Assembly (NCBI GenBank): GCA_026395055.1 | Contig: JAPLZK010000002.1 | Coordinates: 56,940 to 120,939 of the forward strand | Direction of reading: 5' to 3' | From: Candidatus Uhrbacteria bacterium | GTDB taxonomy: Bacteria > Patescibacteriota > Patescibacteriia > UBA9934 > GWF2-40-263 | Length of the DNA stretch: 64,000 bases | Shown: positions 6,098 through 31,630 of the stretch, piece after piece | Layout of the letters: each line of letters begins with the position of its first letter | Numbering within the stretch: the first letter of the stretch is position 1 | The notes under the pieces: generated by a model | Seen by the model: only the letters and a program-made list of their open reading frames with translations | Told to the model about the DNA's origin: nothing | Databases searched by the model: none | Translations under genes and position numbers: made by a program

Positions 6098-6229
6098 ATG
6101 CAAGTGATGTATTTTCTCGGTAACGCAATGAATGTGGTGATCGTCGGTGGTCTCTTGGTTTCCGCCGTCGTCATTCCACGTGATCTACTGCGTGGCGCGT
6201 TCAGTCGCAGCGCGCAGCGCAAAGCGTAA
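6098..6229 (+). CDS. Small TM peptide (43 aa)
   Basis: gggag RBS 6 nt upstream. Single TM segment NVVIVGGLLVSAVVI. Short, so tentative. Confidence 0.3.
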   Translation: MQVMYFLGNAMNVVIVGGLLVSAVVIPRDLLRGAFSRSAQRKA

Positions 6230-6250
6230 TTCGACAACGTTCTTTCTCTT

Positions 6251-6316
6251 GGCGAGAATCTTCTCGCCTCTTTTCCAGAGACTCACATCGATGGATGATG
6301 TGGTGATCTGCGAAAG
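6251..6316 (+). promoter_or_regulatory. Island junction unit (IJU)
   Basis: GGCGAGAATCTTCTCGCC, TCTTTTCCAGAGA, CACATC/GATGTG stem, TCTGCGAAAG, then ATAAGGAGG. Confidence 0.75.
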
Positions 6317-6330
6317 ATAAGGAGGTTCCG

Positions 6331-6954
6331 ATGCGGGATTTGGAAGCGATGTATCTTGAACACTTGGCGTTCGTGCGTGCGAATCTTGCGCTGCTCGGCG
6401 TTGAGGATCCGGAAGTGATGATTGCGTTTCGTGTAACGGATCAACGGCATAAACAACCGGACCGAATGATTACGTTCGATCTTTCTCTCTCAGAAGCACT
6501 ACATCACGAAGTGTGTTGTGCATGGCGATCATTTTTCGCCCCGCGATGGCCGGAGGAAACGACTTACAAGCCTGAAGTGCAGATGAATGGGGAATTGTTC
6601 GGGTATCTTGATTCGTCAGGATTCCGTTACAAAGATCCGCCTTCGCTCAGGCTTGCCCTTGCGTGGATGATTGTTGCCAGGTGGGAAAATCCACCGTTTC
6701 TGTTTGATCTTGATAAGGCTGTGAGTGTTCTTGCTGCCGTAGTTGCCGAAGGTGTGACCGAAGAGATCTTTGTGATGAAGTGGCTTCCAGCCCTGAAACA
6801 CGTTTTCGCGTTGCAACCCGGGATGACTGTTCGGGATGGTTATCGATCGTCCGAGGTGTATCTCTGGCGTGTAGCAACAAAAGATGTGTACGGCGAATCA
6901 CACCCTGGGTATCCAGGACGTGTGGAGCCGTGTTATCTGTTGCGTGTTCTTTGA
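6331..6954 (+). CDS. Hypothetical cytoplasmic protein (207 aa)
   Basis: Strong RBS. No signal peptide. No family recognised. Confidence 0.5.
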   Translation: MRDLEAMYLEHLAFVRANLALLGVEDPEVMIAFRVTDQRHKQPDRMITFDLSLSEALHHEVCCAWRSFFAPRWPEETTYKPEVQMNGELFGYLDSSGFRYKDPPSLRLALAWMIVARWENPPFLFDLDKAVSVLAAVVAEGVTEEIFVMKWLPALKHVFALQPGMTVRDGYRSSEVYLWRVATKDVYGESHPGYPGRVEPCYLLRVL

Positions 6955-6961
6955 AGCGTTT

Positions 6962-7020
6962 GGCGAGAATCTTCTCGCCTCTTTTCCAGAGACAACAAAC
7001 AGGTTGTGGTCTCTCAGAAG
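6962..7020 (+). promoter_or_regulatory. Island junction unit (IJU)
   Basis: GGCGAGAATCTTCTCGCC, TCTTTTCCAGAGA, GAGACAAC/GTTGTGGTCTC stem, CTCAGAAG. Confidence 0.7.
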
Positions 7021-7073
7021 GTTACAGACAGCATCAGTTGCATGCGACCATCCGTCGTTTGCTTGGAGGAAGT

Positions 7074-7367
7074 ATGGCGTTACCGATCATTGGGTATCTC
7101 GCGCGTTCCGATTGGGAAGATCCCGAGGACAGCGTCGTTGTCGCGATCGAAGATTGCGCGGAACCACAAGTGTTCCGTGTGCTTGCCGCAGAATGGTGTG
7201 CGAAAGAAAACACTGTTCACGTTGTGACCAGGTGGATGCGCGGAAAAGCGCCGATCAAAGTTCGCCTTGGCGAATCCGCCGTTGACTCGATGGCGGAATG
7301 TAGTCTCAAGTTCTGTGCGACGGAAGCTCTGGCCATCGAATGGCTGGGGACACAGTCGCAGTCGTAG
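7074..7367 (+). CDS. Hypothetical protein (97 aa)
   Basis: tggagga RBS 4 nt before the ATG (MALPIIGY...). The longer ORF 6780-7367 overlaps the previous gene and the IJU. Confidence 0.45.
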   Translation: MALPIIGYLARSDWEDPEDSVVVAIEDCAEPQVFRVLAAEWCAKENTVHVVTRWMRGKAPIKVRLGESAVDSMAECSLKFCATEALAIEWLGTQSQS

Positions 7368-7388
7368 GTTGTTTATCGTTCCTTTCTT

Positions 7389-7455
7389 GGCGAGAATCTT
7401 CTCGCCCCTTTTTCAGAGATCAAGAGTGAATGGCATTTGTGGTTTCTGTCAGAAG
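7389..7455 (+). promoter_or_regulatory. Island junction unit (IJU), weaker stem
   Basis: GGCGAGAATCTTCTCGCC, CCTTTTTCAGAGA ... TTTCTGTCAGAAG. Confidence 0.6.
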
Positions 7456-7484
7456 TGTTTCGTTGTTTTGTACAGGAGGGAAAG

Positions 7485-7649
7485 ATGGCACTGTTGGCTT
7501 TCATTGCAGGATGTTTCGCGGGTTCGATCATGTTTGTCGTCGCATGCGGTCTCCTTGGATACCGGATGATGCGCTCGGTCATGAAGGGGCAGAAGCCTCG
7601 TCTCGATCGTCCCGACGTGAAATATACGTTTCCGAACAAAAAGGAATAA
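7485..7649 (+). CDS. Small TM protein (54 aa)
   Basis: AGGAGGG RBS. TM segment MALLAFIAGCFAGSIMFVVACGLLG. Confidence 0.4.
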   Translation: MALLAFIAGCFAGSIMFVVACGLLGYRMMRSVMKGQKPRLDRPDVKYTFPNKKE

Positions 7650-7651
7650 TC

Positions 7652-8020
7652 ATGTACGCACGAAATCAAAACGTGGCGGCATGGGTCGCTATCGTAAACG
7701 CAAACGGGTATCAAGAAGTTTGTCCCGTTTCGAAAACGCAAAATGTGTACGCGCAATTCTCTCCGGTGATCCTTCGCTGGAGTCGGGAAGGGGAAATCAT
7801 TCTCGAATTCGTGAACAAGCCGCGAGCGCGACCGTTCGACCCTGACGATGATCGCAAGAATGAAATCGTTCGCGTAAACATCGGCAACGGCGTGATCACG
7901 AAGCGTGACTCGGATTGGAATCCGATTCTGCGGTGTGTTCCATGCGCATCGCATGCGGAAGCAATCATCGAGGCCAAGCGATTGATGGAAGTCATGATGG
8001 ACTATCAGGCGGCGGCGTAA
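7652..8020 (+). CDS. Hypothetical protein (122 aa)
   Basis: Starts 2 nt after the previous stop. Followed by a strong terminator. Confidence 0.5.
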   Translation: MYARNQNVAAWVAIVNANGYQEVCPVSKTQNVYAQFSPVILRWSREGEIILEFVNKPRARPFDPDDDRKNEIVRVNIGNGVITKRDSDWNPILRCVPCASHAEAIIEAKRLMEVMMDYQAAA

Positions 8021-8031
8021 GGTTTTTTCTT

Positions 8032-8063
8032 GACCAGACTCGAATGAGTTTGGTCTTTTTTTT
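8032..8063 (+). terminator. Intrinsic terminator ending the small-ORF array
   Basis: gaccagact-cgaatg-agtttggtc hairpin followed by T8. Confidence 0.8.
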
Positions 8064-8071
8064 GATGATGG

Positions 8072-8115
8072 GCTCGAAACCTCCCCCAACCCCTCCTTTG
8101 CAGGAGGGGCTTTGG
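8072..8115. repeat. 44-bp inverted repeat, left arm
   Basis: gctcgaaacctcccccaacccctcctttgcaggaggggctttgg. A perfect reverse complement lies at 8536-8579. Contains the internal hairpin cccctcc/ggagggg. Confidence 0.95.
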
Positions 8116-8146
8116 GCGTAGATAAAAACACTCCGCGTGGGAGTGT

Positions 8147-8530
8147 TTAAATGTATTGGGTTGGTCGTGCTGGTTGTATTGCGAGAATTTGTTTGATTCT
8201 GCTAATGACAGAGTTTGTGTTGTTTATTACTTCGTCGTTTGTAAATCGAATCACTTTGATTTCGTATCCTTCAATTATTCGTGACCGTTCCTCGTCATGT
8301 GTTTTTCCTTCACTGGTAAAATGCTGCGAACCATCAAGTTCGATTGCCAATCGTTTTTCGGAGCAATAGAAATCTACAACGAAAGAATCAATACCATGTT
8401 GTCGACGAAACTTAAAGCCTAACTTCTTGTTTTTAAGATGCTCCCATAAATAATTCTCCGCACGCGTCGCTTCGTTACGAAGCACGCGCCTCACATCCTT
8501 TTGATAGAACCGATTAAAAAGTTCATGCAT
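8147..8530 (-). CDS. DUF559 (Vsr-like) endonuclease-domain protein (127 aa)
   Basis: Motifs LRNEATRAENYLWEHLK, FRRQH, VDFYC, AIELDGSQH, IRFTNDEV. Start set at MHELF, because the longer ORF runs into the repeat and smc. Confidence 0.75.
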   Translation of the reverse strand: MHELFNRFYQKDVRRVLRNEATRAENYLWEHLKNKKLGFKFRRQHGIDSFVVDFYCSEKRLAIELDGSQHFTSEGKTHDEERSRIIEGYEIKVIRFTNDEVINNTNSVISRIKQILAIQPARPTQYI

Positions 8531-20897: not shown

Positions 20898-21959
20898 ATG
20901 CACGCAGGCATGACGGTCAATGGATTGACAATCGGTGTTCATCGACCACGGAAAGATCCACGTCGCGGACGTGTACTTGCCGCGAGAGCACCACAAGGTG
21001 TGCATAACATTGCGGACTACAAAGATATGCCGCAAGGTTGGCCGCGTGCGCAAGGTCCAAACGAGTTGTCGTGTTTTGTGGGGGTCACAGATGAACATGA
21101 GATGTGGTTTGATGTGCGTCCGCTGAATCAGCATTCGCATTACGCTGCTGTGGTCGTGATCGTTCAGCGCGTGAATGCGCTGACCGCTCGCACAGCGGAT
21201 CACGTCTATCTCGAGAAATACGTAGACACGTGTCCGAAGCATGAGACTCTATTCGAGGCAGAACGCTTTTGCCCGGAATGCAAGTTCAAGTGGCCGGCAC
21301 AAAACTACATCACCAATGCGGGCGGTGCAGATTCGGAGAGGCAGTTCTGGCTTGATGGTTGGCGTAGCCAAGACGGTGAGATTCGCCAGTTCGTCTTTGC
21401 GGACGTGGAAAAGGGTCTTGGCGTTGCACAGCAGTTGATTGGCGAAGAGCGCACGGCGGACATTCGCTTCGCGATATTCCTTTCGAAGGAACCGAAGCCT
21501 GTTCCGCCGCGCTTGCAAGCTGCACGTCGTGGCGGGGGAGATATTGTCGATTGTTATTTGGGTGACAATACGAAGGGTGGCGGCTTTTTGGGTCACGCTC
21601 TGAATAGTCCCGTGTTCGGCGCAAAGGTTGATTCAAGCTCGCAAACGCGTTCCTTGAACATGATGGCGACGCTTGGTGCTTCCAGTTTGGGTGATGAGGA
21701 CGCGTCGTTCTTGCAAGGAAACGATCCAAGGACGATCGGTGCTCCGGTGAAGCAGGAGGTTTCCTTTGGTCGCGCGGTGGACCAGAAGATTCATCCGGAT
21801 CCGCATGACATTGGCTTCTGGCAGGACGAACCCGCTGCGGTCATCATGCTCACGCCAGCACCTGCGGCTTGGGTTGAGACCGTGACGCGCAATGGCGCGA
21901 CGGTTGATCGCACGCTTGGCGGTATGGGGCCGCTCGCGGGATTGAAGGGCGTTGGCTAA
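20898..21959 (+). CDS. Hypothetical protein with CPKH...CPEC zinc-ribbon (353 aa)
   Basis: Long GC-rich ORF. No family recognised. Start uncertain. Confidence 0.5.
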   Translation: MHAGMTVNGLTIGVHRPRKDPRRGRVLAARAPQGVHNIADYKDMPQGWPRAQGPNELSCFVGVTDEHEMWFDVRPLNQHSHYAAVVVIVQRVNALTARTADHVYLEKYVDTCPKHETLFEAERFCPECKFKWPAQNYITNAGGADSERQFWLDGWRSQDGEIRQFVFADVEKGLGVAQQLIGEERTADIRFAIFLSKEPKPVPPRLQAARRGGGDIVDCYLGDNTKGGGFLGHALNSPVFGAKVDSSSQTRSLNMMATLGASSLGDEDASFLQGNDPRTIGAPVKQEVSFGRAVDQKIHPDPHDIGFWQDEPAAVIMLTPAPAAWVETVTRNGATVDRTLGGMGPLAGLKGVG

Positions 21960-21971
21960 GACGGGACTCTT

Positions 21972-21998
21972 GAAAGCTGAAAGGCTTTCTTTTTTTTG
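21972..21998 (+). terminator. Intrinsic terminator
   Basis: gaaagc-tgaaag-gctttc hairpin followed by T9. Confidence 0.7.
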
Positions 21999-22047
21999 GA
22001 GGGGCAAGGGATTAGTAGCTAACTGGCTTACTAACCCCTAACCCCTC

Positions 22048-22085
22048 TTGACGTTTCTTTAGTATGTGTATAACCTACACTTAGT
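22048..22085 (+). promoter_or_regulatory. Promoter P1 with 28-bp box TTTAGTATGTGTATAACCTACACTTAGT
   Basis: TTGAC at 22048. The box differs at a single base (C for T) from the one at 23671-23698. Confidence 0.65.
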
Positions 22086-22270
22086 GGCACATGTCGCCCG
22101 GAAAACGGACGGGAAACGCTTGACATAATCCGGATCCGCGACTAGGGTGCTGTATTGTTCTTTCTTGCTGGCGAATGGCTTTGAGAAGATTCTGTGAATC
22201 TTTTGAAAGCCGTTCGTCATCAGGGTGTTCCTGAAGTTGCCGTGCGGTGGTTCTCACAAGGAGTATTTCC

Positions 22271-23614
22271 ATGCCCGCCAAGCCCAAGGCACCCGTTGCC
22301 GCTACTGCCGAATCCGGCGCCACTGTTCCCCCCGCGAGTCCGAAGTGGACGGCGCTCGTCGAAAAGTTTGCGGCCTCGACCGGTCTCGGTATCGAAGTCG
22401 TTGGCCCTCGTTTCAAGACGCTCACTGGCACGGACGACGACGCTGGTGTGGAGTTGCTCGAGAACGCGGCAGACACGCCCGACCAGGAATTGAAGACGTT
22501 GTTCGCGGCTGATGGTGTCGCTTCGGCGCGCCTGAATCGCGCGATTCGCGAGATGCGTTTGGTTGCAGCTCCTGTCGTCCCCGTCGCTCCGGCGCCTGGT
22601 CCGTCCGCGGCCGTTCCGAACGTTGGTTCGACTCCGATTCTGCTGACGCAGGCTCCGGGGGACGATGATCTTCTCCGCGCGTTGCGGATTGGCGGTCGTC
22701 CCGAATTCGAAGCGGCCAACTTGGCTGCGGTCATTCGCGCGGCTGTCGCGGCGAAGAACGGATTGTATGGGTTGCCGAAGCGCTTGCAGGAGGCGATTCA
22801 CGAGACGGCTCGTCGTACCAAGAAGCCTGCCCCCGCTGTGCTCGTCGAAATTCGTCGCGAGCTTGCTCGGCGCAGTGATCAGGCCGCGTTGTTCGCCGAT
22901 CTGATGCCCGGTCAGGATGGTGCGAACTACGTCACGGCCGAAGACAAGGTCCAGACCATCAAGGATCTCGACAAGGTTTGGCCGGCGTTCATGCAATTTC
23001 AGCAGCAGCTTCGTGGTTTCCGCGATGAAGCGGTGAACGTTGCCATGACGGCAGGGATGATGGGCATGCAAGGCATGAACATGGGTCTCGCTGCCGCGGG
23101 TCTCACCCCGGAAATGCTGGTTGGTACCAGTTTGGATGCCCAACCGTACGTAGACGCGAGTGAAGGGATCATCAATGCCCTGAACGAGGTCTTCGCGGAC
23201 ATGGGTTTGTACGCTTCGCGCGTGCTTGCCGTGGAAGCGCATCGGTTGACGCAAATCGTGCAGAAGGACGAATTGATCGCTGCCGTTGGCGCGACCAATC
23301 GCGAAGAGATGTTGCTGACGCTGAAGATCGGCATGACGTCCGACGTCATCCGTGCGCAGCAGAACCTGGTGACGTGGGTCGTGAACGTGATCGATCTGCC
23401 GAACAAGGATGCTATGAGTTTGCGCGGCGTGCTTCTCACGTTGTTCCAGCTCGGTGAGCAGATTCCGTGGGAAAAGCTCAGCAATGGCGCGGTCAGCTTG
23501 CCGCGGCAGTCGATGGGCAATGGCGCGAGCCGCCCCTCAATGGACGGCCGTCCGCTCCCCGGCCAAAAGCAGCCCGGCAACACGGCGTTCAGCAGCAACA
23601 ACGGCCGCGACTAG
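22271..23614 (+). CDS. Hypothetical protein, Ala/Pro-rich N-terminus (447 aa)
   Basis: aaggag RBS 7 nt before the ATG (MPAKPKAPVAA...). Met/Gly-rich patch MTAGMMGMQGMNMGL. No family recognised. Confidence 0.55.
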   Translation: MPAKPKAPVAATAESGATVPPASPKWTALVEKFAASTGLGIEVVGPRFKTLTGTDDDAGVELLENAADTPDQELKTLFAADGVASARLNRAIREMRLVAAPVVPVAPAPGPSAAVPNVGSTPILLTQAPGDDDLLRALRIGGRPEFEAANLAAVIRAAVAAKNGLYGLPKRLQEAIHETARRTKKPAPAVLVEIRRELARRSDQAALFADLMPGQDGANYVTAEDKVQTIKDLDKVWPAFMQFQQQLRGFRDEAVNVAMTAGMMGMQGMNMGLAAAGLTPEMLVGTSLDAQPYVDASEGIINALNEVFADMGLYASRVLAVEAHRLTQIVQKDELIAAVGATNREEMLLTLKIGMTSDVIRAQQNLVTWVVNVIDLPNKDAMSLRGVLLTLFQLGEQIPWEKLSNGAVSLPRQSMGNGASRPSMDGRPLPGQKQPGNTAFSSNNGRD

Positions 23615-23627
23615 AAGCCCTTTCCTC

Positions 23628-23655
23628 AGAACGTCCCAAAAAGACGTTCTTTTTT
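23628..23655 (+). terminator. Intrinsic terminator
   Basis: agaacgtc-ccaaaaa-gacgttct hairpin followed by T5. Confidence 0.8.
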
Positions 23656-23660
23656 GTTGC

Positions 23661-23698
23661 TTGACAAGAGTTTAGTATGTGTATAATCTACACTTAGT
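23661..23698 (+). promoter_or_regulatory. Promoter P2 (TTGACA ... TATAAT) carrying the same 28-bp box as P1
   Basis: TTGACAagagTTTAGTATGTGTATAATCTACACTTAGT. Confidence 0.7.
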
Positions 23699-23893
23699 AA
23701 CGCATTTCATTACCTTCCCCTTGCGAAGGGGGAGCATGAGGGGGTCTGTGGCTAAAAGCCTTGACATTCCGCTGTTATTTCCTTAAGGTTCGCCCTTGTT
23801 TTTCTTCCGGAATCGAACAATGTGTCCGCTTCGGGAAGGGAAACAAACACAAGGTTTGTCTCGCGCGTCCTTTTCACAACAGAGGGATCATCC

Positions 23894-25537
23894 ATGCACA
23901 CTTTGCCAGACGTTCGTACGCTTCCGCTTCCGTCCAAATTCCTTGTCGCGCTTCAGAAACTGATTCTTCGCACGCTTGAGATCTCTGGGTCAAAGATGGG
24001 GAATCAACTCGTCGAAGCGATTTTTGGAAAAACCATCACGTTTGGTCAACTCCAGATTCCTTCTATGCAAGATTGTGTTGAAGCGATTCGGGGCGAAGGT
24101 ATGACGCGTCCAAACATTCGCATTCGTGAACTCGTAGATCTCTTTGGAGCGATCAACCCAACAACGCCTGTGTGCGATGAGTGTGGTGAGTTTGCCATCA
24201 ATCAGATCGGTGGAAAGTTCATGGAACTTCAGCCCGACGAACTCTGTCCGTTTTGTTTGCAGGGCCACGTCAAGATCGAACCGATGATTCTGCGTACGGT
24301 GAACTGGGCAACTGGTGAACTCGTTGTGCCGAACATTGATTACGATTCACACTCGCGCATTGGTCTCGGCATTCCGCTGACTGATGAAGCGATTGTGAAG
24401 TGGGCGGATGGAATCAATATGGATTTGGATGCCGCACTCGTTGCGGCAAAGATTTCCATTCACGGGTTCCTTGCGTACCTGTATCTGCGTCAGCATGCAT
24501 TCGCACAGCTCGAAGACGTTCCGAAATTTCTGTTGAGTCCACGTGGATTCGATACGAAGTATTCGGAAGAGACACTCGATCGTCTCATACGTGAGGCATC
24601 GCAATTTCTGGATGTGCGTGAGATCACAAATCTTCCGCACAAGAAATTTCTTCCTGATGGTCGTCGTCGCGATGAGTTTACCTCGATCACAATCGGTGGT
24701 CGCGCGTATCTCATCGATGGCAAGATTGGTGAAGGAGATAAGTGCGATGTGTACGCTGGTCGATGGGATCACGAGCCGACGGAGCGTGTCGTCGTAAAGA
24801 TTGCACGCGTTGGCGTGAGTGATGATCGACTGCGTGCGGAGCGCACAAATCTTGAGTTGCTCGCGAAGAGTGATGCGCAAGGCGTGGAATTTTTTCGCCA
24901 ACTGCTTCCGGAAATCATTTCGTTCGGCAGCGTACAAGATCCAAACGGGCAATCACGCTCGTGTGTGGTCTATCGCGATCGAAACGGATTTGATTGGACC
25001 CTCGCTGACGTGATGCGTGCGTACCCACAAGGAGTGGAGCCACAGACGATGGTCTGGATGTTCAATCGAACACTCATGTTGCTTGCGTGGATGCATGAAC
25101 ATGACATTGTGCACGGTGCTCTCACACCTGGGCACATGCTCATTCATCCGAAGTATCACGGACTCATGTTTCTTGACCTCGCGTATGCGGGTCGAATCGG
25201 ACAGCCGCTTCCGGATGTCGAACCTTCACACGTGCTCTATCGTCCAAGTGCATCGCTTACCAACAATGTCTTTCACCCAATGATGGACATCTGTATGGCA
25301 GCGCGATGCATGATTGTGGTCATGGGAGGAAACCTCGAGCAAAAAACGATTCCGACAACTGTGCCGGATCCGCTCGCGGCGCTCTTGTCCAACCTCGCAT
25401 TTCCGGATGATAGCCATTTGTGGGGTTCGCGTTTTGCCAAGTTGGCCGATCAAGTCAAAGCAAGCTTTGGCGCGATTGCGGAAACGGTTTACGGCCCGAG
25501 GAAGTATCACGCATTTGAAATGCCACCCGTGGCATAG
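23894..25537 (+). CDS. Protein-kinase-fold protein, probable pseudokinase, with N-terminal CxxC...CxxC zinc-ribbon (547 aa)
   Basis: Gly-loop IGEGDKCDVY, VVVKIA Lys, ERTNLELL. Catalytic loop IVHGALTPGHMLI has Ala in place of the catalytic Asp. DFG position reads FLDLAYAG. RBS agaggga. Confidence 0.6.
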   Translation: MHTLPDVRTLPLPSKFLVALQKLILRTLEISGSKMGNQLVEAIFGKTITFGQLQIPSMQDCVEAIRGEGMTRPNIRIRELVDLFGAINPTTPVCDECGEFAINQIGGKFMELQPDELCPFCLQGHVKIEPMILRTVNWATGELVVPNIDYDSHSRIGLGIPLTDEAIVKWADGINMDLDAALVAAKISIHGFLAYLYLRQHAFAQLEDVPKFLLSPRGFDTKYSEETLDRLIREASQFLDVREITNLPHKKFLPDGRRRDEFTSITIGGRAYLIDGKIGEGDKCDVYAGRWDHEPTERVVVKIARVGVSDDRLRAERTNLELLAKSDAQGVEFFRQLLPEIISFGSVQDPNGQSRSCVVYRDRNGFDWTLADVMRAYPQGVEPQTMVWMFNRTLMLLAWMHEHDIVHGALTPGHMLIHPKYHGLMFLDLAYAGRIGQPLPDVEPSHVLYRPSASLTNNVFHPMMDICMAARCMIVVMGGNLEQKTIPTTVPDPLAALLSNLAFPDDSHLWGSRFAKLADQVKASFGAIAETVYGPRKYHAFEMPPVA

Positions 25538-25542
25538 CTCTT

Positions 25543-25626
25543 CGTAGAGGAGGGGATTTACTTCTCCTCTACGAAATCTTTTTCCTGACTTGAAACGTGT
25601 ACACAAAATTTGTGCACGCATTTCAG
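25543..25626 (+). promoter_or_regulatory. Island junction unit, W variant
   Basis: cgtagaggag...ctcctctacg hairpin, TTTTTCCTGA, long imperfect hairpin gaaacgtgtacacaaa/tttgtgcacgcatttc, TTTCAGA. Confidence 0.6.
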
Positions 25627-25688
25627 ATCATGAATCTGAATCGAACAAAGGGTTCGAGGAACGTTCTTCACAACACAGGAGTCAGCAC

Positions 25689-26636
25689 ATGGGTGGCGGA
25701 TTTTACGATTACCGTGCACACGAAGCAACAACGGTTGCGCGTGCAGCCAAACCCATTCAAGTGGTGTTTTCACAAACGGCGTGTCATCCGCTCATGGATC
25801 CGAAAGGATTGCGTGTGCGTGAATCACGTGACAGTTTGGAACATCCAAACTCGCGTGCGATTCTCTTTGGAGTCGATGTGACGAAGTCGATGGGGCCAAT
25901 CCCAGAAGGGTTGGCAAAGCGAACATTGCCGCAATTCATGCGCGCCGTGCTCCGCGTCATTCCGCATCCGCAGATTTGTTTTGTTGGCATCGGTGACGCA
26001 CTCGATGGGGATCGCGCTCCGCTTCAAGTGGGTGAGTTCGAAAGTTCGCACGCGCTTATTGATGCGAGTCTTACGCGTCTGTACATCGAAGGTGGTGGTG
26101 GATCCATCGGAAGTGAGTCTTATGAGAACATGTTTTATCTGGCTGCACGTCATACGTCGATTGACTGTTGGGAGAAGCGTCGCGAAAAGGGGTATCTCTT
26201 TTTGACTGGCGATGAAACTCCGTATCCAAACGTGATTGCCTCCACGATCAATCGATTGATTGGTCCAGGAACGCTGACCGCAAACATTCCCATCGAAGCA
26301 ATCATTGCAGAAGCAAGTGTGAAATATCATCCGTTCTTTTTTATTCCAGACCAAGGTCGCTCACTCACGATTGAACGTTCGTGGCGCAACAAGCTTGGGG
26401 ATGCAGTGATCGTTCTTCAAAATCCGGAAGATACGTCCGTTGCGGCCGCGATCTTGATTGGCCTCTGCGAAGGCGTTTATCAACATCTCGACGACGTGCG
26501 TCAGGCACTTGCAACGGAGTTTGATCGAAAGGGCGATGCGTTGTATCGCGTTGTTTCATCTGTTGAAGCATACGCCGCATCCATTGGACTTGGTGGCGCG
26601 CGCCGTCCGGTTTTGTCGCAAGGTGTGCGGTGGTGA
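25689..26636 (+). CDS. vWA-domain protein 1 (315 aa)
   Basis: MIDAS-like FGVDVTKSMG, later IGDA and LFLTGDETP. Paralog of the next gene. Confidence 0.65.
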   Translation: MGGGFYDYRAHEATTVARAAKPIQVVFSQTACHPLMDPKGLRVRESRDSLEHPNSRAILFGVDVTKSMGPIPEGLAKRTLPQFMRAVLRVIPHPQICFVGIGDALDGDRAPLQVGEFESSHALIDASLTRLYIEGGGGSIGSESYENMFYLAARHTSIDCWEKRREKGYLFLTGDETPYPNVIASTINRLIGPGTLTANIPIEAIIAEASVKYHPFFFIPDQGRSLTIERSWRNKLGDAVIVLQNPEDTSVAAAILIGLCEGVYQHLDDVRQALATEFDRKGDALYRVVSSVEAYAASIGLGGARRPVLSQGVRW

Positions 26637-26649
26637 TTCCAATTTCTTT

Positions 26650-26731
26650 GTAGGGGAGGGTGACTATTCTCCCCTACACCATTTTTTCCTGAACTGAAAT
26701 ATCTATTCGATCATCGAATGTATATTCCAGG
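26650..26731 (+). promoter_or_regulatory. Island junction unit, W variant
   Basis: gtaggggag...ctcccctac hairpin, TTTTTTCCTGAA, long imperfect hairpin ending TTCCAGG. Confidence 0.6.
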
Positions 26732-26819
26732 TCATGAATCTGGTTCTGTTATCGAGGGTTCGATTCCAGAAGTGTCTCATATTCCGATTTCGATCGGAAG
26801 TACACAAGGTAGGTGTCTC

Positions 26820-27794
26820 ATGGGCAGTGGTGGTTGGGATCATAGCGCTTCAACGGCGCGTTCACAGACGCGTTCGGCGCGTTCTGTTCAAGAAACGGTG
26901 TTGCAGGATTTTACGCAGACGCGTGAAAGCCGAATCCATCCGGGGATGCATCCGAATGGGCTCGTGTTTCGCGAGTCGCGTGACAGTGTGGAACATCCGA
27001 AGTCTCGTGCAATCATCGGTTCGCTCGACATCACGCAGTCGATGCAGGGGCTTCCGCCGCTGCTCGCGCGTGAGACGTTGCCGCAACTGATGGCAGGCGT
27101 TTTGCCGATTTTGCCGGATGCACAACTGTGCTTCATGGCGTTCGGTGATGCGGATGATGGACACAACTATCAAGGACCGTGGCAGGTTGGTCAGTTCGAG
27201 AGCTCGGATGAGCTTGCGGACGCGTGGCTGACGCGCATCTGGTTGCAAGGGAGTGCTGGTTCGTCTCCGTGCGAATCCGCGGACCTCATCTTGTACACGG
27301 CGGCTCGGCTCACGCGCATCGATTGTCACGAGAAGCGTGGCGAGAAAGGTTATCTGTTCATTCTGACCGATGACACGTGCCGCGACTACGTTTGTGCGGC
27401 AACGGTGAACAAGTGGCTTGGTCGTCAGGAACTCGATGAGAACGTCTCGATCGAGGCGATCATTCAGGAAGCTGCTGAAAAGTACCACATCTTCGTGTTG
27501 ATCCCGGATCAGGCGCGTGCGGTGCAGATGCGTGGCGGCGAGCGCGTCATCGATCACTATCGTCGTCGTATCGGCAACGGGGCGATTGCGCTTGGTGGGT
27601 ACCAGGACACGTCCATCGTTGCGGCCATGCTCATCGGCCTCACCGAAGGCGCGTACAACATGTCGAACGTCGACCATGAGTTGCGCACGCGGTACGGCAA
27701 GTCGGGTGACGAGCTGAATCGGTTGCTCATGATCCTGCGTCCGTACGCGGAATCCCTGCCGAAGACGCCGCTCATCGTGGATCTGCCCGTCTGA
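26820..27794 (+). CDS. vWA-domain protein 2 (324 aa)
   Basis: GSLDITQSMQG MIDAS-like motif, FGDADD, LFILTDDT. Shares the HPxMxPxGLxxRESRDSxEHPxSRAI N-terminal block with vWA-1. Confidence 0.65.
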   Translation: MGSGGWDHSASTARSQTRSARSVQETVLQDFTQTRESRIHPGMHPNGLVFRESRDSVEHPKSRAIIGSLDITQSMQGLPPLLARETLPQLMAGVLPILPDAQLCFMAFGDADDGHNYQGPWQVGQFESSDELADAWLTRIWLQGSAGSSPCESADLILYTAARLTRIDCHEKRGEKGYLFILTDDTCRDYVCAATVNKWLGRQELDENVSIEAIIQEAAEKYHIFVLIPDQARAVQMRGGERVIDHYRRRIGNGAIALGGYQDTSIVAAMLIGLTEGAYNMSNVDHELRTRYGKSGDELNRLLMILRPYAESLPKTPLIVDLPV

Positions 27795-27806
27795 GTTCTT
27801 TCTTCT

Positions 27807-27870
27807 GAGGTTCAACGGGAACCTCCTTTTTTACAAGTGATGATCACAGGGATGATTGCTTCTAGAAAAG
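27807..27870 (+). promoter_or_regulatory. Island junction unit
   Basis: GAGGTTC-aacg-GGAACCTC, CTTTTTTACA, tgatgatca/tgattgc stem, TAGAAAAG, then GGAGGAG RBS. Confidence 0.7.
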
Positions 27871-27891
27871 TTCTAGCTTCGGAGGAGTCCT

Positions 27892-29277
27892 ATGACTCGA
27901 CATGCTCATCTTGTCGTTGATCTTTCAAACGGGGATGCAGGAAAAGGAACGATCGTGGATGCGCTCGTGCGGAAGTATCGTGCGCATACCGTGATTCGAT
28001 TCAATGGCGGTGCGCAAGCGGCGCATCGTGTTGTGACCGGTGACGGTCGCGAACATATTTTTTCCCAATTCGGTTCAGGAACATTTGTTCCGGGTGTGCG
28101 CACTGTGCTTTCGAAGTACGTGCTCGTTCAGCCGTGGGCGCTTGTTCCGGAAGCGGAGCATCTCGAAGAGCTCGGCATTACGGATGCCTTTGATCGATTG
28201 TTTATTCATGAAGACGCACTCATCATCACACCATTTCATCGAGCGGCAAATCGCTTGCGTGAACGTGCGCGTGCAAAATGGGATGGTCGACATGGGAGTT
28301 GCGGAATCGGCGTTGGCGAGACGGCACATGATGCGCTCACGCTCAAGGAATCGCTCGTGGTTCGCGTGCGTGACTTGCGTGATCTGGGTGCGTTGAAAGA
28401 AAAACTGCAACGCGTGCAAAAACAAAAAGCGTTTCATGTTGATGCGATGATGTTTCAACTGATCGACGATCCAGAAGCCTCCGTAGACATTATCGAACTC
28501 GAAGATCCGGAAGCGGCAACATCTTGGATCAAGCAGCTCGAAGCGGTGCTACCGAAACTGAATATCATTGATGACACATGGTTTGCATCTCTCTTGAACG
28601 AACCAGGTCACATCGTGTTTGAAGGTGCACAAGGTGTGCTCATTGATGAGTCACGCGGATTTCATCCGTACACCACGTGGTCGAATTGTACATTTCAAAA
28701 CGCGCTCGACTTGCTCGCAAACTACGATGGAGAGATTCATAAGATCGGAGTTGTCCGAGCGTATGCGACGCGCCATGGTCCTGGTCCGTTTGTGACGGAA
28801 GATGTTCATCTCACAGAACGTCTGCCGGACGCATGTAATAAAATGGATCCATGGCAGCGTGGATTTCGCGTCGGCCACTTCGATTGCACCTCTACTCGAT
28901 ATGCGATCTCGGCTTGTGACGGCATCGACTCGCTTGCGATTACATGTCTCGACCGCTTGCGCGATGAGCCTGCGTGGAAGATCTGCACATATTATGAACT
29001 TGCTCCAGAAGATGAAGAAAGCACGTTGTTCTATGTTGTGAAGACGTTTCGAGGTTTTCGCCTCTGGATGGACCCTGGACCGTTCCAAGACCTTATATAC
29101 CAAGAGCGACTCACGCACGCACTCGAGCGCGCGAAGCCCGTGCTTCACATTACAACCACGTCAGGAACGTTCGATGAACGCGTCGAACACCATGTCCGCG
29201 AGATTACACAAGAACTCAACGTTCCTGTCTCGATCCTTTCGTTCGGTCCAACAGCAGAAGATAAGAAATTTCTCTAG
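27892..29277 (+). CDS. Adenylosuccinate synthetase family enzyme (PurA/PurZ-like, 461 aa)
   Basis: P-loop GDAGKGTIVD, RFNGGAQAAH, GSCGIGVGE, FEGAQGVLIDESRGFHPYTTWS and ATRHGPGPFVTE, in the canonical PurA order. Confidence 0.8.
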   Translation: MTRHAHLVVDLSNGDAGKGTIVDALVRKYRAHTVIRFNGGAQAAHRVVTGDGREHIFSQFGSGTFVPGVRTVLSKYVLVQPWALVPEAEHLEELGITDAFDRLFIHEDALIITPFHRAANRLRERARAKWDGRHGSCGIGVGETAHDALTLKESLVVRVRDLRDLGALKEKLQRVQKQKAFHVDAMMFQLIDDPEASVDIIELEDPEAATSWIKQLEAVLPKLNIIDDTWFASLLNEPGHIVFEGAQGVLIDESRGFHPYTTWSNCTFQNALDLLANYDGEIHKIGVVRAYATRHGPGPFVTEDVHLTERLPDACNKMDPWQRGFRVGHFDCTSTRYAISACDGIDSLAITCLDRLRDEPAWKICTYYELAPEDEESTLFYVVKTFRGFRLWMDPGPFQDLIYQERLTHALERAKPVLHITTTSGTFDERVEHHVREITQELNVPVSILSFGPTAEDKKFL

Positions 29278-29301
29278 ATGCGAATGATTCGCATCTTTTT
29301 T
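29277..29301 (+). terminator. Intrinsic terminator ending the kinase-vWA-vWA-PurA operon
   Basis: gatgcgaa-tga-ttcgcatc hairpin followed by T6. Confidence 0.85.
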
Positions 29302-29359
29302 GTTGGCCAAGAACCCCCTCCTTATCAAGGAGGGGGCAGGGGGTGGTCGGGTATCAACC

Positions 29360-29388
29360 TTGACCTAATCGCCATATTCTGGTAGGCT
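29360..29388 (+). promoter_or_regulatory. Sigma70-like promoter
   Basis: TTGACC, 17-nt spacer, TAGGCT. Confidence 0.55.
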
Positions 29389-29451
29389 TCCGCTCGTTGT
29401 GTGTGGAGTGTCTGTGCACAATATGTTTCTCAAACACAAGGGTAAACGTCC

Positions 29452-30441
29452 ATGTCAAACAAGATCGGTTCGCAACTCGTTCAGGCCATTTTGGCCATGC
29501 AGAAAGATCCGTCCAAGCTCGCGGTTGAGCTCAAGGTTCATGTCTTTCCGTGTCCGCATAGTGACAATGCGCATCATATGCACTTCAAGGTGACGTCTCC
29601 GTTCGTTGAGGACCAAACGTTGGCTCAGCAGATCGAAGCGAACCTGATGATGGCGGCGATGACGCAAGAGTTCATGCCTGTGAAGGGCAATTACGATTTC
29701 ACCCAGAGTCTCATCAGTGGCACCAAGTGTACCAATGAAGAGGTGTCCGATGCCGACACGGTTCAGTTCCTGCAGAATGCGGGGATCGTGAAGGCGTTGT
29801 TTGATCTGACGGTCGCCCTGCGAGATGCTTTTGCCGAGTGGCCGAGCGAACTCAGCACGGAGCATGTGCTTTCGGCTGGGTATTCGACCCAGACGCGCAA
29901 GAAGCTTTATCATGGCACGGACACCGATCCGATCAAGGTCGAGGTCGTGAGCATGCGCAAGATTGCACTCGATCAGACAAAGCGTGCACTGATGTCTCTG
30001 TTCGCTCCCAATTTCGCGAAGAGCGAACGTGTCGAGCAGAACAAAGTGATCACGCTCATTGCGTTCAACGACGTGAATCCCTGTTCGCCCGTCGTGCGCC
30101 AAGCGTACGCGGCATACGCGCAGGAGATGCTCGACAACAAGCTCGAGCCGAAGATCGCTCCGAAGATCGTGGAGCGCGTGCAGTTGGCACTCGACACGCT
30201 TGCGACGCGCCTTGCGAAGCAGCAAGCCACGAAGCTGAATGAGACCACCACGAATCCGACGCAGACGGCGGTCGGTACGGAGGATGGCATCGGCACGGAA
30301 GTCGGTGACGGCGCGACGAAGACGACGAACGTCCCGCAGGCTCTGTCTGGTGGGGTTGGTCCTGGTTCGTCCGAAGTTTCCTTCAATCCTTCGTCCGCTG
30401 GCCACGACAGCAATGGTCAGTCGACTGGCGCTACGGCGTAA
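29452..30441 (+). CDS. Hypothetical protein with low-complexity Thr/Gly tail (329 aa)
   Basis: Long ORF with its own promoter and terminator. No family recognised. Confidence 0.55.
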   Translation: MSNKIGSQLVQAILAMQKDPSKLAVELKVHVFPCPHSDNAHHMHFKVTSPFVEDQTLAQQIEANLMMAAMTQEFMPVKGNYDFTQSLISGTKCTNEEVSDADTVQFLQNAGIVKALFDLTVALRDAFAEWPSELSTEHVLSAGYSTQTRKKLYHGTDTDPIKVEVVSMRKIALDQTKRALMSLFAPNFAKSERVEQNKVITLIAFNDVNPCSPVVRQAYAAYAQEMLDNKLEPKIAPKIVERVQLALDTLATRLAKQQATKLNETTTNPTQTAVGTEDGIGTEVGDGATKTTNVPQALSGGVGPGSSEVSFNPSSAGHDSNGQSTGATA

Positions 30442-30556
30442 GTCATCTCTTTTCTACACTCTCGTCCTCGAGGGTGTTTTTTGTTCGTCAATTCAACGAC
30501 GATCCATTGACGAAATCGTTCTTCTCTGTTAAATTTCCTGGTCTTGTTCTCAAGAC

Positions 30557-31561
30557 ATGAGGTGCTCCTTGAACGCAGAAAATACATTCGATCTTGTGGT
30601 TATCGGTGGTGGTATTGCGGGGCTTGCGTCGGCAATCAATGCGGCGAGCGAAGGGCTTTCCGTGTGTGTGCTTGAGGGTGGAATTGAGTTTGGGGGACAA
30701 ACAAGTACCATCAAACAGATTCGCAATTTGGTTGGATATCCAGAAGGGATTTCCGGCCGGGAACTCATTCGTCTCACGCTCGCGCAAGCGCGCGGGTTCG
30801 GTGTGAAACTTTGCGCGCCTTATCGCGTGCAAAAGATTCGCCGCGGTTCCTTGAGCGAATTGTACGTTGATACGTCACATGGGAAGTCATTTACGACGCG
30901 TGCCATTCTCATTACCGCAGGTGTGCGTTATCGTCGTCTTGGTGTGGATGAAGTCAGTTCGTTCATGGGTCACGGCGTTACGTACGGTGAGCTACCGGAT
31001 AATATTGTCGGGGAACGTGTTGCGGTCATTGGTGGTGGCAACAGTGCTGGGCAAGCGGTGGTTGCACTCGCACAAAAGAGTGAGTGCAACATTGATCTGC
31101 TTGTTCGTGGCGCGCTCTCGGATAAGCAGATGAGTCAGTATTTGATTGATGTCATTCGGAAAAATGCGCATGGGAACATTGATGTTCACGAACAGGTGGA
31201 GGTGATTGGTGCGGATGGGTTTTTGAAACTCGAACACATCACTCTGCGTTCCTTGAAGACGCAACACCTCACACGCATGCCCCTTGATCGCCTTCTTATT
31301 TCGATTGGATCTGAGCCGCATATTGAATGGGCCGCAGATCAAGTCGTCGTAGACGAAAAAGGCTTCATCAAAACCGGCAGCCGTGTCGCGTCTGAATCCG
31401 TTTGGATCAATACGCAACGCAAACCGCTCCCATTTGAAACGACTCCAGGGATCTTTGCGGCAGGGGACATTGAATCCGAAAGTGTGAAGCGCGTTGCGTC
31501 CTCGATTGGTGCCGCAACCGGCGCGATTGCGAGCATTCTGCGTTTCCTTGGTCGTCGATAA
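30557..31561 (+). CDS. Thioredoxin-reductase-like FAD/NAD(P) oxidoreductase lacking the redox CxxC
   Basis: DLVVIGGGIAGLASA, VAVIGGGNSAGQ and GIFAAGDI motifs. The CATC position reads GVTYGELPDN. Confidence 0.7.
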   Translation: MRCSLNAENTFDLVVIGGGIAGLASAINAASEGLSVCVLEGGIEFGGQTSTIKQIRNLVGYPEGISGRELIRLTLAQARGFGVKLCAPYRVQKIRRGSLSELYVDTSHGKSFTTRAILITAGVRYRRLGVDEVSSFMGHGVTYGELPDNIVGERVAVIGGGNSAGQAVVALAQKSECNIDLLVRGALSDKQMSQYLIDVIRKNAHGNIDVHEQVEVIGADGFLKLEHITLRSLKTQHLTRMPLDRLLISIGSEPHIEWAADQVVVDEKGFIKTGSRVASESVWINTQRKPLPFETTPGIFAAGDIESESVKRVASSIGAATGAIASILRFLGRR

Positions 31562-31630
31562 AATTCTTACGTTCACGTTTTATTACGTGAACGTTTTTTT
31601 AATAAAAAAAGAGGATCAGAGTTCTGATCC

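Follow-up and report, generated by a model that had tools for sequence, protein, structure and literature searches.

A predicted GTP-dependent ligase from a separate clade of the PurA fold, encoded beside vWA and kinase-fold partners in bacteria and large phages

Introduction

What does an enzyme with the fold of adenylosuccinate synthetase (PurA) do at a locus that has no other gene for purine synthesis? The question is raised by a gene in a 64-kb stretch of a Candidatus Uhrbacteria contig (JAPLZK010000002.1), which is called the window below. The gene follows one gene for a kinase-fold protein and two genes for proteins with a von Willebrand factor A (vWA) domain (Table 1). A first-pass annotation of the same DNA had proposed that it codes for an accessory PurA-fold enzyme with a substrate other than inosine monophosphate (IMP). 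We find that the enzyme belongs to a separate clade of ~460-aa proteins, which is neither canonical PurA nor PurZ, the phage succino-amino-deoxyadenylate synthase. Its members in other phyla and in large phages are nearly always encoded next to the same vWA partner, and usually near the kinase-fold one as well. We give about an even chance to the reading that the protein is a ligase of the PurA type, dependent on guanosine triphosphate (GTP), which uses an amine other than free aspartate and works within this vWA/pseudokinase cassette. The earlier proposal is borne out as to the non-canonical substrate residues and the accessory context, but the evidence favours a new amine over a new base.

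The PurA-like protein belongs to a separate clade

A ribosome-binding site (GGAGGAG) lies 5 nt upstream of the ATG at 27892, and database homologues align with the protein from its residue 1 onward. The Pfam profile Adenylsucc_synt (PF00709) matches residues 8-456, that is, the full length (E 2.3e-66, 225 bits). An AlphaFold model, for which 34 relatives served as input, was obtained with a pLDDT of 91.8 and a pTM of 0.92. It matches bacterial, plant and mammalian PurA structures with TM scores of 0.76-0.83 (Foldseek E ~1e-31), and among solved structures E. coli PurA comes closest in sequence (1e-31). By its full-length profile match and its fold the protein is a member of the PF00709 superfamily, and it shares its whole architecture with canonical PurA (EC 6.3.4.4; E. 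coli, PDB 1CG0/1ADE).

The protein is nevertheless not a canonical PurA, since its scores are under half of the cutoffs of the curated families: 179.1 bits against 402 for NF002223, 155.7 against 395.6 for TIGR00184, and 122 against 445, 118 against 700 and 83 against 368 for the other PurA models. Its identity to canonical PurAs is ~26-30%, as against 45-66% to clade members of other phyla. Among 5.8 billion proteins searched, a coherent family of proteins ~440-480 aa long stood out, with members in Candidatus Uhrbacteria, other Patescibacteria, Myxococcaceae, Ktedonobacterales and Binatia. The core motifs that had been listed for the gene are all present (GDAGKG, GGAQAAH, GIGVGE, FEGAQG..LID, HPYTTWS and RHGPGPF), but several of them are variants specific to the clade. 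Here QGGHNAGH of PurA is replaced by NGGAQAxH, GTTGRGIGP by GSCGxGxGE and YPYVTSSN by HPYTTWSN. An extra segment of ~60 aa, which had been suspected at residues 170-235, did not hold up on comparison with E. coli PurA (from NC_000913.3). This region is only ~12 aa longer, and the protein as a whole is 29 aa longer, with several small insertions.

The analogy with PurZ that the first-pass annotation had drawn turned out to be only a loose one. PurZ is also a phage-borne PurA fold diverted from the synthesis of AMP out of IMP, and phrog_1211, which the PurA-like gene matches, bears a PurZ-style label. The clade differs from PurZ, however, in that the present protein reaches 49.8 bits against a cutoff of 300 in the PurZ model NF038379, and the PurZ/PurZ0 structures (6FM1, 7ODX, 7VF6) match its model with TMq values of 0.44-0.56, ranking under all PurAs. 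PurZ retains aspartate as its substrate and is of a short, archaeal-like type. Its usual companions DatZ, MazZ and DpoZ were not among the 25 commonest PHROG families in 137 flanking open reading frames (ORFs) of viral loci, taken over ~6 kb on each side. In public annotation, clade members are called 'adenylosuccinate synthetase', 'PurA-like' or by a PurZ-style name. The name '2-aminooxy adenylosuccinate synthetase' is spreading through phrog_1211 to phage genes such as NC_054722.1 gene 260 and OR413349.1 CDS0145. As these genes do not pass the PurZ model and differ from PurZ in their pocket, the label is probably a systematic mis-annotation.

The GTP machinery is retained and the substrate pocket is changed

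Residues were mapped onto E. coli numbering in 121 database, 79 GTDB and 80 viral members of the clade. Their roles are those established by structure-function work on E. coli PurA, in which D13 is the catalytic base and H41 the catalytic acid, D333 and S414/G416 recognise guanine, and T300/T301, R303 and R305 bind L-aspartate, with R303 contacting the carboxylate. The 5'-phosphate of IMP is held by N38, T129, T239 and R143 of the partner subunit.

The residues by which PurA binds GTP and transfers the phosphoryl group are invariant or nearly so in the clade, from the P-loop (G12-K18) and D13, K16, H41 and Q224 to D333 and S414; T239 is shared with PurA as well. The residues D13, K16, H41, Q224, T239, R272, D333, S414 and G416 are kept in 120-121 of the 121 database members, 74-79 of the 79 GTDB members and 69-80 of the 80 viral members, and S414 is the least conserved among the catalytic and GTP residues. 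G12 and G17 are also invariant or nearly so among the 121, as they are in PurA.

In contrast, the aspartate loop and the ligands of the IMP 5'-phosphate have been replaced. The loop TTGRRR has become WQxxFR ([W/F]QxxFR) throughout the clade; at T300/T301, R303 and R305 it now carries W/F, Q, a variable residue and F/L/V, respectively. At the 5'-phosphate site N38 is replaced by Q in all 121 database members and T129 by C in 120 of them, and T239 is the sole ligand kept. R143, R303 and R131 are no longer conserved. V238T, S240W and V273H are fixed replacements specific to the clade, and K331 has become C, H or N. The same signature was seen in Leptospira, Ideonella and mycobacteriophage Ava3. 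The first-pass annotation had left it to an alignment to decide whether the substrate contacts are canonical; at the aspartate loop and the 5'-phosphate site they are not.

A changed pocket under purifying selection, together with intact GTP machinery, would be the pattern of an active enzyme that has different substrates. Since D13, Q224 and T239 are kept and the remodelling is strongest in the aspartate pocket and at the 5'-phosphate site, a different amine, rather than a different base, is indicated first.

The gene is part of a three-gene cassette in bacteria

The order kinase, vWA, PurA-like that is seen in the window recurs in a related contig of the Candidate Phyla Radiation (CPR), in a Ktedonobacterales contig, in an unrelated 3-Mb contig and in Pyxidicoccus. 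A search begun from the vWA protein also reaches the cassette, in Leptospira and Ideonella, and the PurA-like clade is found in Micromonospora and Myxococcus as well. Peptide patterns specific to the clade matched at least 576 stretches in GTDB species representatives. These belong to Patescibacteria, Myxococcota, Chloroflexota, Actinomycetota, Acidobacteriota, Proteobacteria, Armatimonadota, Planctomycetota and other phyla.

We define the cassette by a PurA-like gene with the signature Q38, C129, H273 and [WFY]QxxΦR, an adjacent vWA gene with a metal-ion-dependent adhesion site (MIDAS) of the form DxTxS and the start M-G-x-[GST]-x-[WYF]-[SD], and, usually, a kinase-fold gene with HGAxxPxH. 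The window carries all three genes, the vWA gene in duplicate. Linkage was counted in the best 80 GTDB loci with hidden Markov models (HMMs) built from the partners; 8 loci were cut by contig ends, which left 72 informative ones. All three genes were present in 63 of these, colinear on one strand in 61 and with the kinase gene elsewhere in the locus in the other 2. The vWA gene was adjacent to the PurA-like gene in 68 of 72, and only 4 had a PurA-like gene without partners. When the ORFs of the GTDB loci were clustered all against all, the widely shared families were the kinase-like, vWA and PurA-like ones only. The two genes of the vWA/PurA-like pair are closely spaced in 34 of 78 bacterial loci, where the stop of the first and the start of the second overlap or are no more than 30 nt apart.

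In a Pfam census of 97 flanking bacterial ORFs no family recurred, and neither pur genes nor a defence signature turned up, so that the clade differs from canonical PurA in its neighbours too: pur genes do not recur beside its members, and a vWA gene is nearly always there. The remark that no purine genes lie nearby was confirmed, the 64-kb window having been searched without finding purB, guaA, guaB or a second purA. A single locus, L043 on a contig of an Anaerolineae metagenome-assembled genome (MAG), has standard purine genes in its neighbourhood. It carries a canonical purA (6134-7396) and a purB-like gene (7426-8412) ~3 kb downstream of the cassette, and the motifs of this purA are textbook ones (GDEGKG, GGDNAGHT, GTTKRGIGPAY, GATTGRPRR and TKLD). 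At least in this organism, therefore, the clade member is not the housekeeping enzyme. Orthologues elsewhere, whose surroundings the first-pass annotation had suggested checking, are likewise found in this accessory cassette rather than in a housekeeping setting.

The cassette is frequent in large phages

By tblastn the PurA-like gene was found in 242 GenBank phage records (202 Mycobacterium, 10 Rhizobium, 6 Vibrio and others), and the vWA partner in matching sets of 201 Mycobacterium, 10 Rhizobium and 6 Vibrio phages. The ~200 mycobacteriophage records with the cassette belong to Bixzunavirus. In one of them, Ava3, the order is gp258 'serine/threonine kinase', gp259 'hypothetical', which is the vWA partner and is so labelled in public annotation, a small gp260, and gp261 'PurA-like adenylosuccinate synthetase'.

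In IMG/VR, 219 viral contigs, many of them 100-500 kb long, carry a clade member. The flanks encode terminase, UvsX, DnaB and endonuclease VII, which shows that these loci are genuine phages; the census of the 137 flanking viral ORFs gave nothing recurrent past such hallmark genes. Of the best 80 among the 219 loci, 79 hold the vWA/PurA-like pair, and the set of three genes is complete in 63. Considering this, together with the phage versions that lack a kinase, the pair is the core of the cassette and the kinase a frequent third member.

The arrangement varies among phages. In L094-L097, L100, L101, L104, L110 and L115 the kinase-like gene lies 3' of the PurA-like gene, giving the order vWA, PurA-like, kinase, and some of these large phages have extra small genes between vWA and PurA-like.

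The patchy, cross-phylum and context-independent distribution of the cassette, rich in jumbo phages, suggests a mobile phage-host module, and it probably has a role in phage-host interaction. Our literature search, which took in relevant comparative-genomics papers, returned no account of the three-gene system. We regard the system as undescribed, and the PurA-like proteins in it as a functionally new clade within a known fold; the coverage of the search was incomplete and an earlier description elsewhere is possible. What the search did return was 'PurA-like' labels in phage genome announcements and a note on DnaJ proteins that occur sporadically in jumbo phages.

Partner proteins

The fold of the kinase-like partner was assigned by sequence profile, the family profile matching CK2alpha among PDB entries (4e-14). 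Throughout the family the catalytic loop reads HGAxxPxH instead of HRDxKxxN, with the Asp, Lys and Asn replaced, while the β3 Lys, the αC Glu and the Asp of DW(G) are kept. By the usual criteria such a protein would be classed as a pseudokinase, and it has probably retained nucleotide binding. Pfam recognises Pkinase in 30 of 61 relatives and an N-terminal DnaJ domain in 20 of 61, and an HPD motif is visible in the family consensus. In the CPR proteins, including that of the window, an N-terminal region with a zinc ribbon takes the place of the J domain; in the window protein it has the form CxxC...CxxC.

The vWA fold of the second partner was confirmed. Its family is large, with ~843 clusters at 50% identity (E <=1e-30) among 1.84 billion representatives. 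The conserved Met-Gly of the N-terminal motif stands at the start of 228 of 245 full-length database members; 75 of 78 viral genes and 76 of 82 bacterial ones likewise have it at a start codon. The two copies in the window are 45% identical, and the tandem duplication includes the upstream intergenic sequence. Duplicates of the vWA gene also occur in L030, and in Myxococcus/Pyxidicoccus (L004, L016, L018) a second copy lies directly 3' of the PurA-like gene.

Two proteins that were considered as domain fusions proved to be something else. The 508-aa P0346, a candidate vWA-PurA-like fusion, was rejected, being a read-through across a frameshift in DNA of high GC content; Arg, Pro and Ala abound in its C-terminal half, which holds one in-frame PurA-like segment. 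P0330 is a vWA partner with an intein (Hint module) placed exactly between KGY and LFxxGDE of the conserved MIDAS strand, and not a functional domain fusion. In the Bixzunavirus phages Sauce, CharlieB and Pinkcreek (H37-H44) the vWA match ends at one and the same residue, 169, and CharlieB and Sauce have a feature annotated as 'HNH endonuclease' at this point, which suggests that a homing element sits at a functionally critical MIDAS site.

Proposed function

Based on the above, we propose that the cassette would be a self-contained unit that moves horizontally, with the PurA-like enzyme as its catalytic subunit. The enzyme may bind GTP and a 6-oxopurine nucleotide and transfer the γ-phosphate of GTP to the purine O6, which is the first half of PurA chemistry; we infer this step from the retention of D13, H41, K16, Q224 and T239. 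An attack on the activated C6 would follow, with an amine as the attacking group. Free L-aspartate is not expected in this role, since T301, R303 and R305 are lost and W, Q and F stand in their place. From the loss of R143 and the fixation of N38Q and T129C, the 5'-phosphate end of the nucleotide may be held differently, with a loosened clamp. For the vWA protein a complex with the enzyme is most likely, in which it would either serve as scaffold or regulator or supply the amine. As to the pseudokinase, it could act as a nucleotide-binding regulator or adaptor, whose J domain would recruit the Hsp70 of the host (DnaK), or it may gate the system.

The main rival to this proposal is that the product is a free modified nucleotide. 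A small-molecule amine other than aspartate, for instance a different amino acid or an amine metabolite, would be coupled to the GTP-activated nucleotide to give an N6-substituted purine nucleotide, to be used as a signal, as a toxin or antimetabolite, or as a precursor for nucleic-acid modification, and the vWA and kinase proteins would only regulate the enzyme. We hold this to be possible, though rather doubtful. The retention of catalytic and base-contacting residues next to a changed amine pocket is what it would predict; PurZ, whose structures are among the fold matches, is a phage precedent for using the PurA fold to make a new nucleotide, and large phages, in which nucleotide pools are frequently rewired, carry the cassette in abundance. 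However, the cassette brings with it no dedicated lyase, product kinase, polymerase or hydrolase, and plain metabolite synthesis does not explain a near-obligate partner of the protein-interaction type. The replacements in the pocket are, moreover, bulky or aromatic, and not new polar or charged ligands. A protein amine might instead make the attack. In such a protein-modifying ligase, C6 would be attacked by the α-amine of the N-terminal Gly of the vWA protein, exposed after removal of Met, or by another protein amine. The product of this 'N-terminal purinylation' would be a protein N-linked to C6 of a purine nucleotide, and the part of the J-domain pseudokinase would be to bring in DnaK or to control the reaction as a gate. 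We consider this unlikely. A precedent in concept only, that of nucleobase-pathway enzymes being repurposed, is the 'deazaguanylation' by Cap9/Cap10 of type IV cyclic-oligonucleotide-based antiphage signalling systems (CBASS), where enzymes of the QueC and TGT families are reported to have been reshaped so that they join a nucleobase to a protein (bioRxiv 10.1101/2025.04.06.647259). The folds and the chemistry are unrelated to those discussed here, and the vWA/PurA-like cassette has no CD-NTase.

Two further explanations can be weighed against the same data. It is most improbable that a CPR bacterium has in this protein its housekeeping adenylosuccinate synthetase, very divergent and with coincidental neighbours. 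The full-length fold, the intact catalytic residues and the public name of many members would agree with this, as would the reduced state of CPR genomes, of which 64 kb of the present one was seen. On the other hand, the scores lie far under every equivalog cutoff, T301, R303, R305 and R143 are lost across the clade, and the same clade with its vWA partner occurs in Myxococcus, Micromonospora, Leptospira and phages. The canonical purA-purB pair beside the cassette in L043 argues against it as well, and purB is neither present in the window nor recurrent near the cassette. Very unlikely as well is a non-catalytic GTP-binding switch or scaffold for vWA/kinase signalling, loosely like TerY-P. The TerY-P triads, known from comparative genomics and as a defence system, consist of a vWA protein, a Ser/Thr kinase and a PP2C phosphatase. 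The likeness lies in a MIDAS vWA gene beside a eukaryotic-like kinase-fold gene in a mobile three-gene unit, and the GTP-binding elements are the best conserved parts of the PurA-like protein. The cassette is, however, no TerY-P triad: it has no recurring PP2C phosphatase, its kinase lacks the HRD Asp and the Lys and Asn of the catalytic loop, and its third gene is PurA-like. PADLOC, whose models we take to include TerY-P, found no match to the vWA and PurA-like genes and weak PD-T4-6 kinase matches to the kinase-like protein, and a known defence system was rejected on this outcome. The invariance of D13, H41 and Q224 and the fixation of a new pocket set (Q38, C129, H273 and W/Q/F) form the pattern of a working site and not that of a switch.

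Several points weigh against our preferred reading of a ligase with a new amine substrate. Loop alignments shifted by one residue between MAFFT runs, and the new residues are placed in the substrate pocket by homology, so that their position there is a prediction. The protein of Vibrio phage pv27 is off-signature, with N38, T129 and N333, and could represent an intermediate stage or another kind of specialisation; this phage and Rhizobium phage RHph_Y65 have the vWA/PurA-like pair without an obvious kinase. The Pfam and PHROG censuses of flanking genes gave neither a defence-island nor a nucleotide-metabolism signature. In a reduced CPR genome, of which the window is 64 kb, the PurA-like protein could still supply AMP. 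Finally, a terminator-like hairpin stands behind every plus-strand gene of this part of the window, and the genes need not form one transcript. The pseudokinase-vWA operon, of which the PurA-like gene had been called the last member, is in this respect better described as a colinear cluster, although its position on the same strand after the kinase-like and the two vWA genes is correct.

To our knowledge the PurA fold had been re-used once, for PurZ and Z-DNA. The present clade would be a second and much more widespread diversification, and its reaction, once known, would add a new GTP-dependent ligase chemistry and possibly a new nucleotide or a new modification of proteins. If purinylation were true, it would be a new class of post-translational modification in bacteria and jumbo phages. 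The cassette, to which a function could then be assigned, sits in model phages that are easily manipulated (Bxz1-like phages of Mycobacterium smegmatis). Knowledge of the reaction would also put right those metabolic reconstructions in which a gene of this clade is taken as evidence of AMP synthesis in CPR and other genomes.

Other features of the window

Table 1. Location of the cassette genes, neighbouring genes and regulatory-type elements in the window, with one phage gene for which coordinates are given in its own locus
Feature	Location	Strand	Remarks
W_353	20898-21959		flanks the cassette
Promoter-like element, second copy	22047-22095		upstream of W_455
W_455	22247-23614	+	no Pfam, NCBIfam or PADLOC match
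Promoter-like element	23660-23708	+	TTGACA ... TGTGTATAAT; upstream of the kinase gene; function predicted from sequence
Protein-kinase-fold partner	23822-25537	+	440 bits to family HMM; true start may be Met25 at 23894
Terminator-like hairpins similar to that at 27807	25541-25575, 26649-26678, 29276-29296, 31569-31594
vWA/MIDAS partner, copy 1	25689-26636	+	ORF opens at 25590; conserved Met-Gly start at 25689
vWA/MIDAS partner, copy 2	26820-27794	+	ORF opens at 26718; Met-Gly start at 26820, MGSGGWD; 450 bits to partner HMM
Terminator-like hairpin and T-run	27807-27825	+	between vWA copy 2 and the PurA-like gene
PurA-like GTP-dependent ligase (predicted)	27892-29277	+	461 aa, ATG start; distinct clade of the adenylosuccinate synthetase superfamily
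W_329	29452-30441		flanks the cassette
Thioredoxin-reductase-like flavoprotein	30557-31561		two genes downstream; 147 bits against TrxB cutoff of 343; syntenic in Uhrbacteria MAG L003
PurA-like gene of Vibrio phage pv27	L171, 4471-5583		370 aa, short; N38 and T129 as in true PurA, N for D333; alongside an MGG...W vWA partner

The element that the first-pass annotation had called a junction unit before the PurA-like gene is real, but it corresponds to the terminator-like hairpin that follows every gene of this stretch. A hairpin with a T-run ends each plus-strand gene between 20300 and 32400, and a consensus scan gave 29 sites as against 14 ± 3.1 in shuffled sequences. In this organism nearly every gene seems to be followed by such a terminator-like element. 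A repeated junction unit as such was rejected, the repeats reducing to a 49-nt promoter-like pair and to intergenic copies that stem from the vWA tandem duplication. The 49-nt direct repeats (22047-22095 and 23660-23708) are 80% identical and contain TTGAC(A/G) and an extended -10-like TGTGTATAA(T/C); they look like paired promoters. Rfam gave no match near the PurA-like gene, and three tRNAs lie elsewhere in the window.

The gene had also been described as GC-rich. This fits the gene weakly, at 0.513 with 0.481 as the mean of the window, and fits better the 10.7-kb stretch 20898-31561, whose GC content is 0.537 and that of its flanks 0.456.

The genes W_353, W_455 and W_329 code for proteins without detectable domains and with low-complexity tails, and are conserved in the related CPR contigs L001 and L003. 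The W_455 cluster covers 5 loci, among them the window, L001, L027 (a Saccharibacteria MAG) and L052 (a 'Gammaproteobacteria' MAG), with the homologues directly 5' of the kinase gene, and W_455 may be an occasional fourth component of the cassette.

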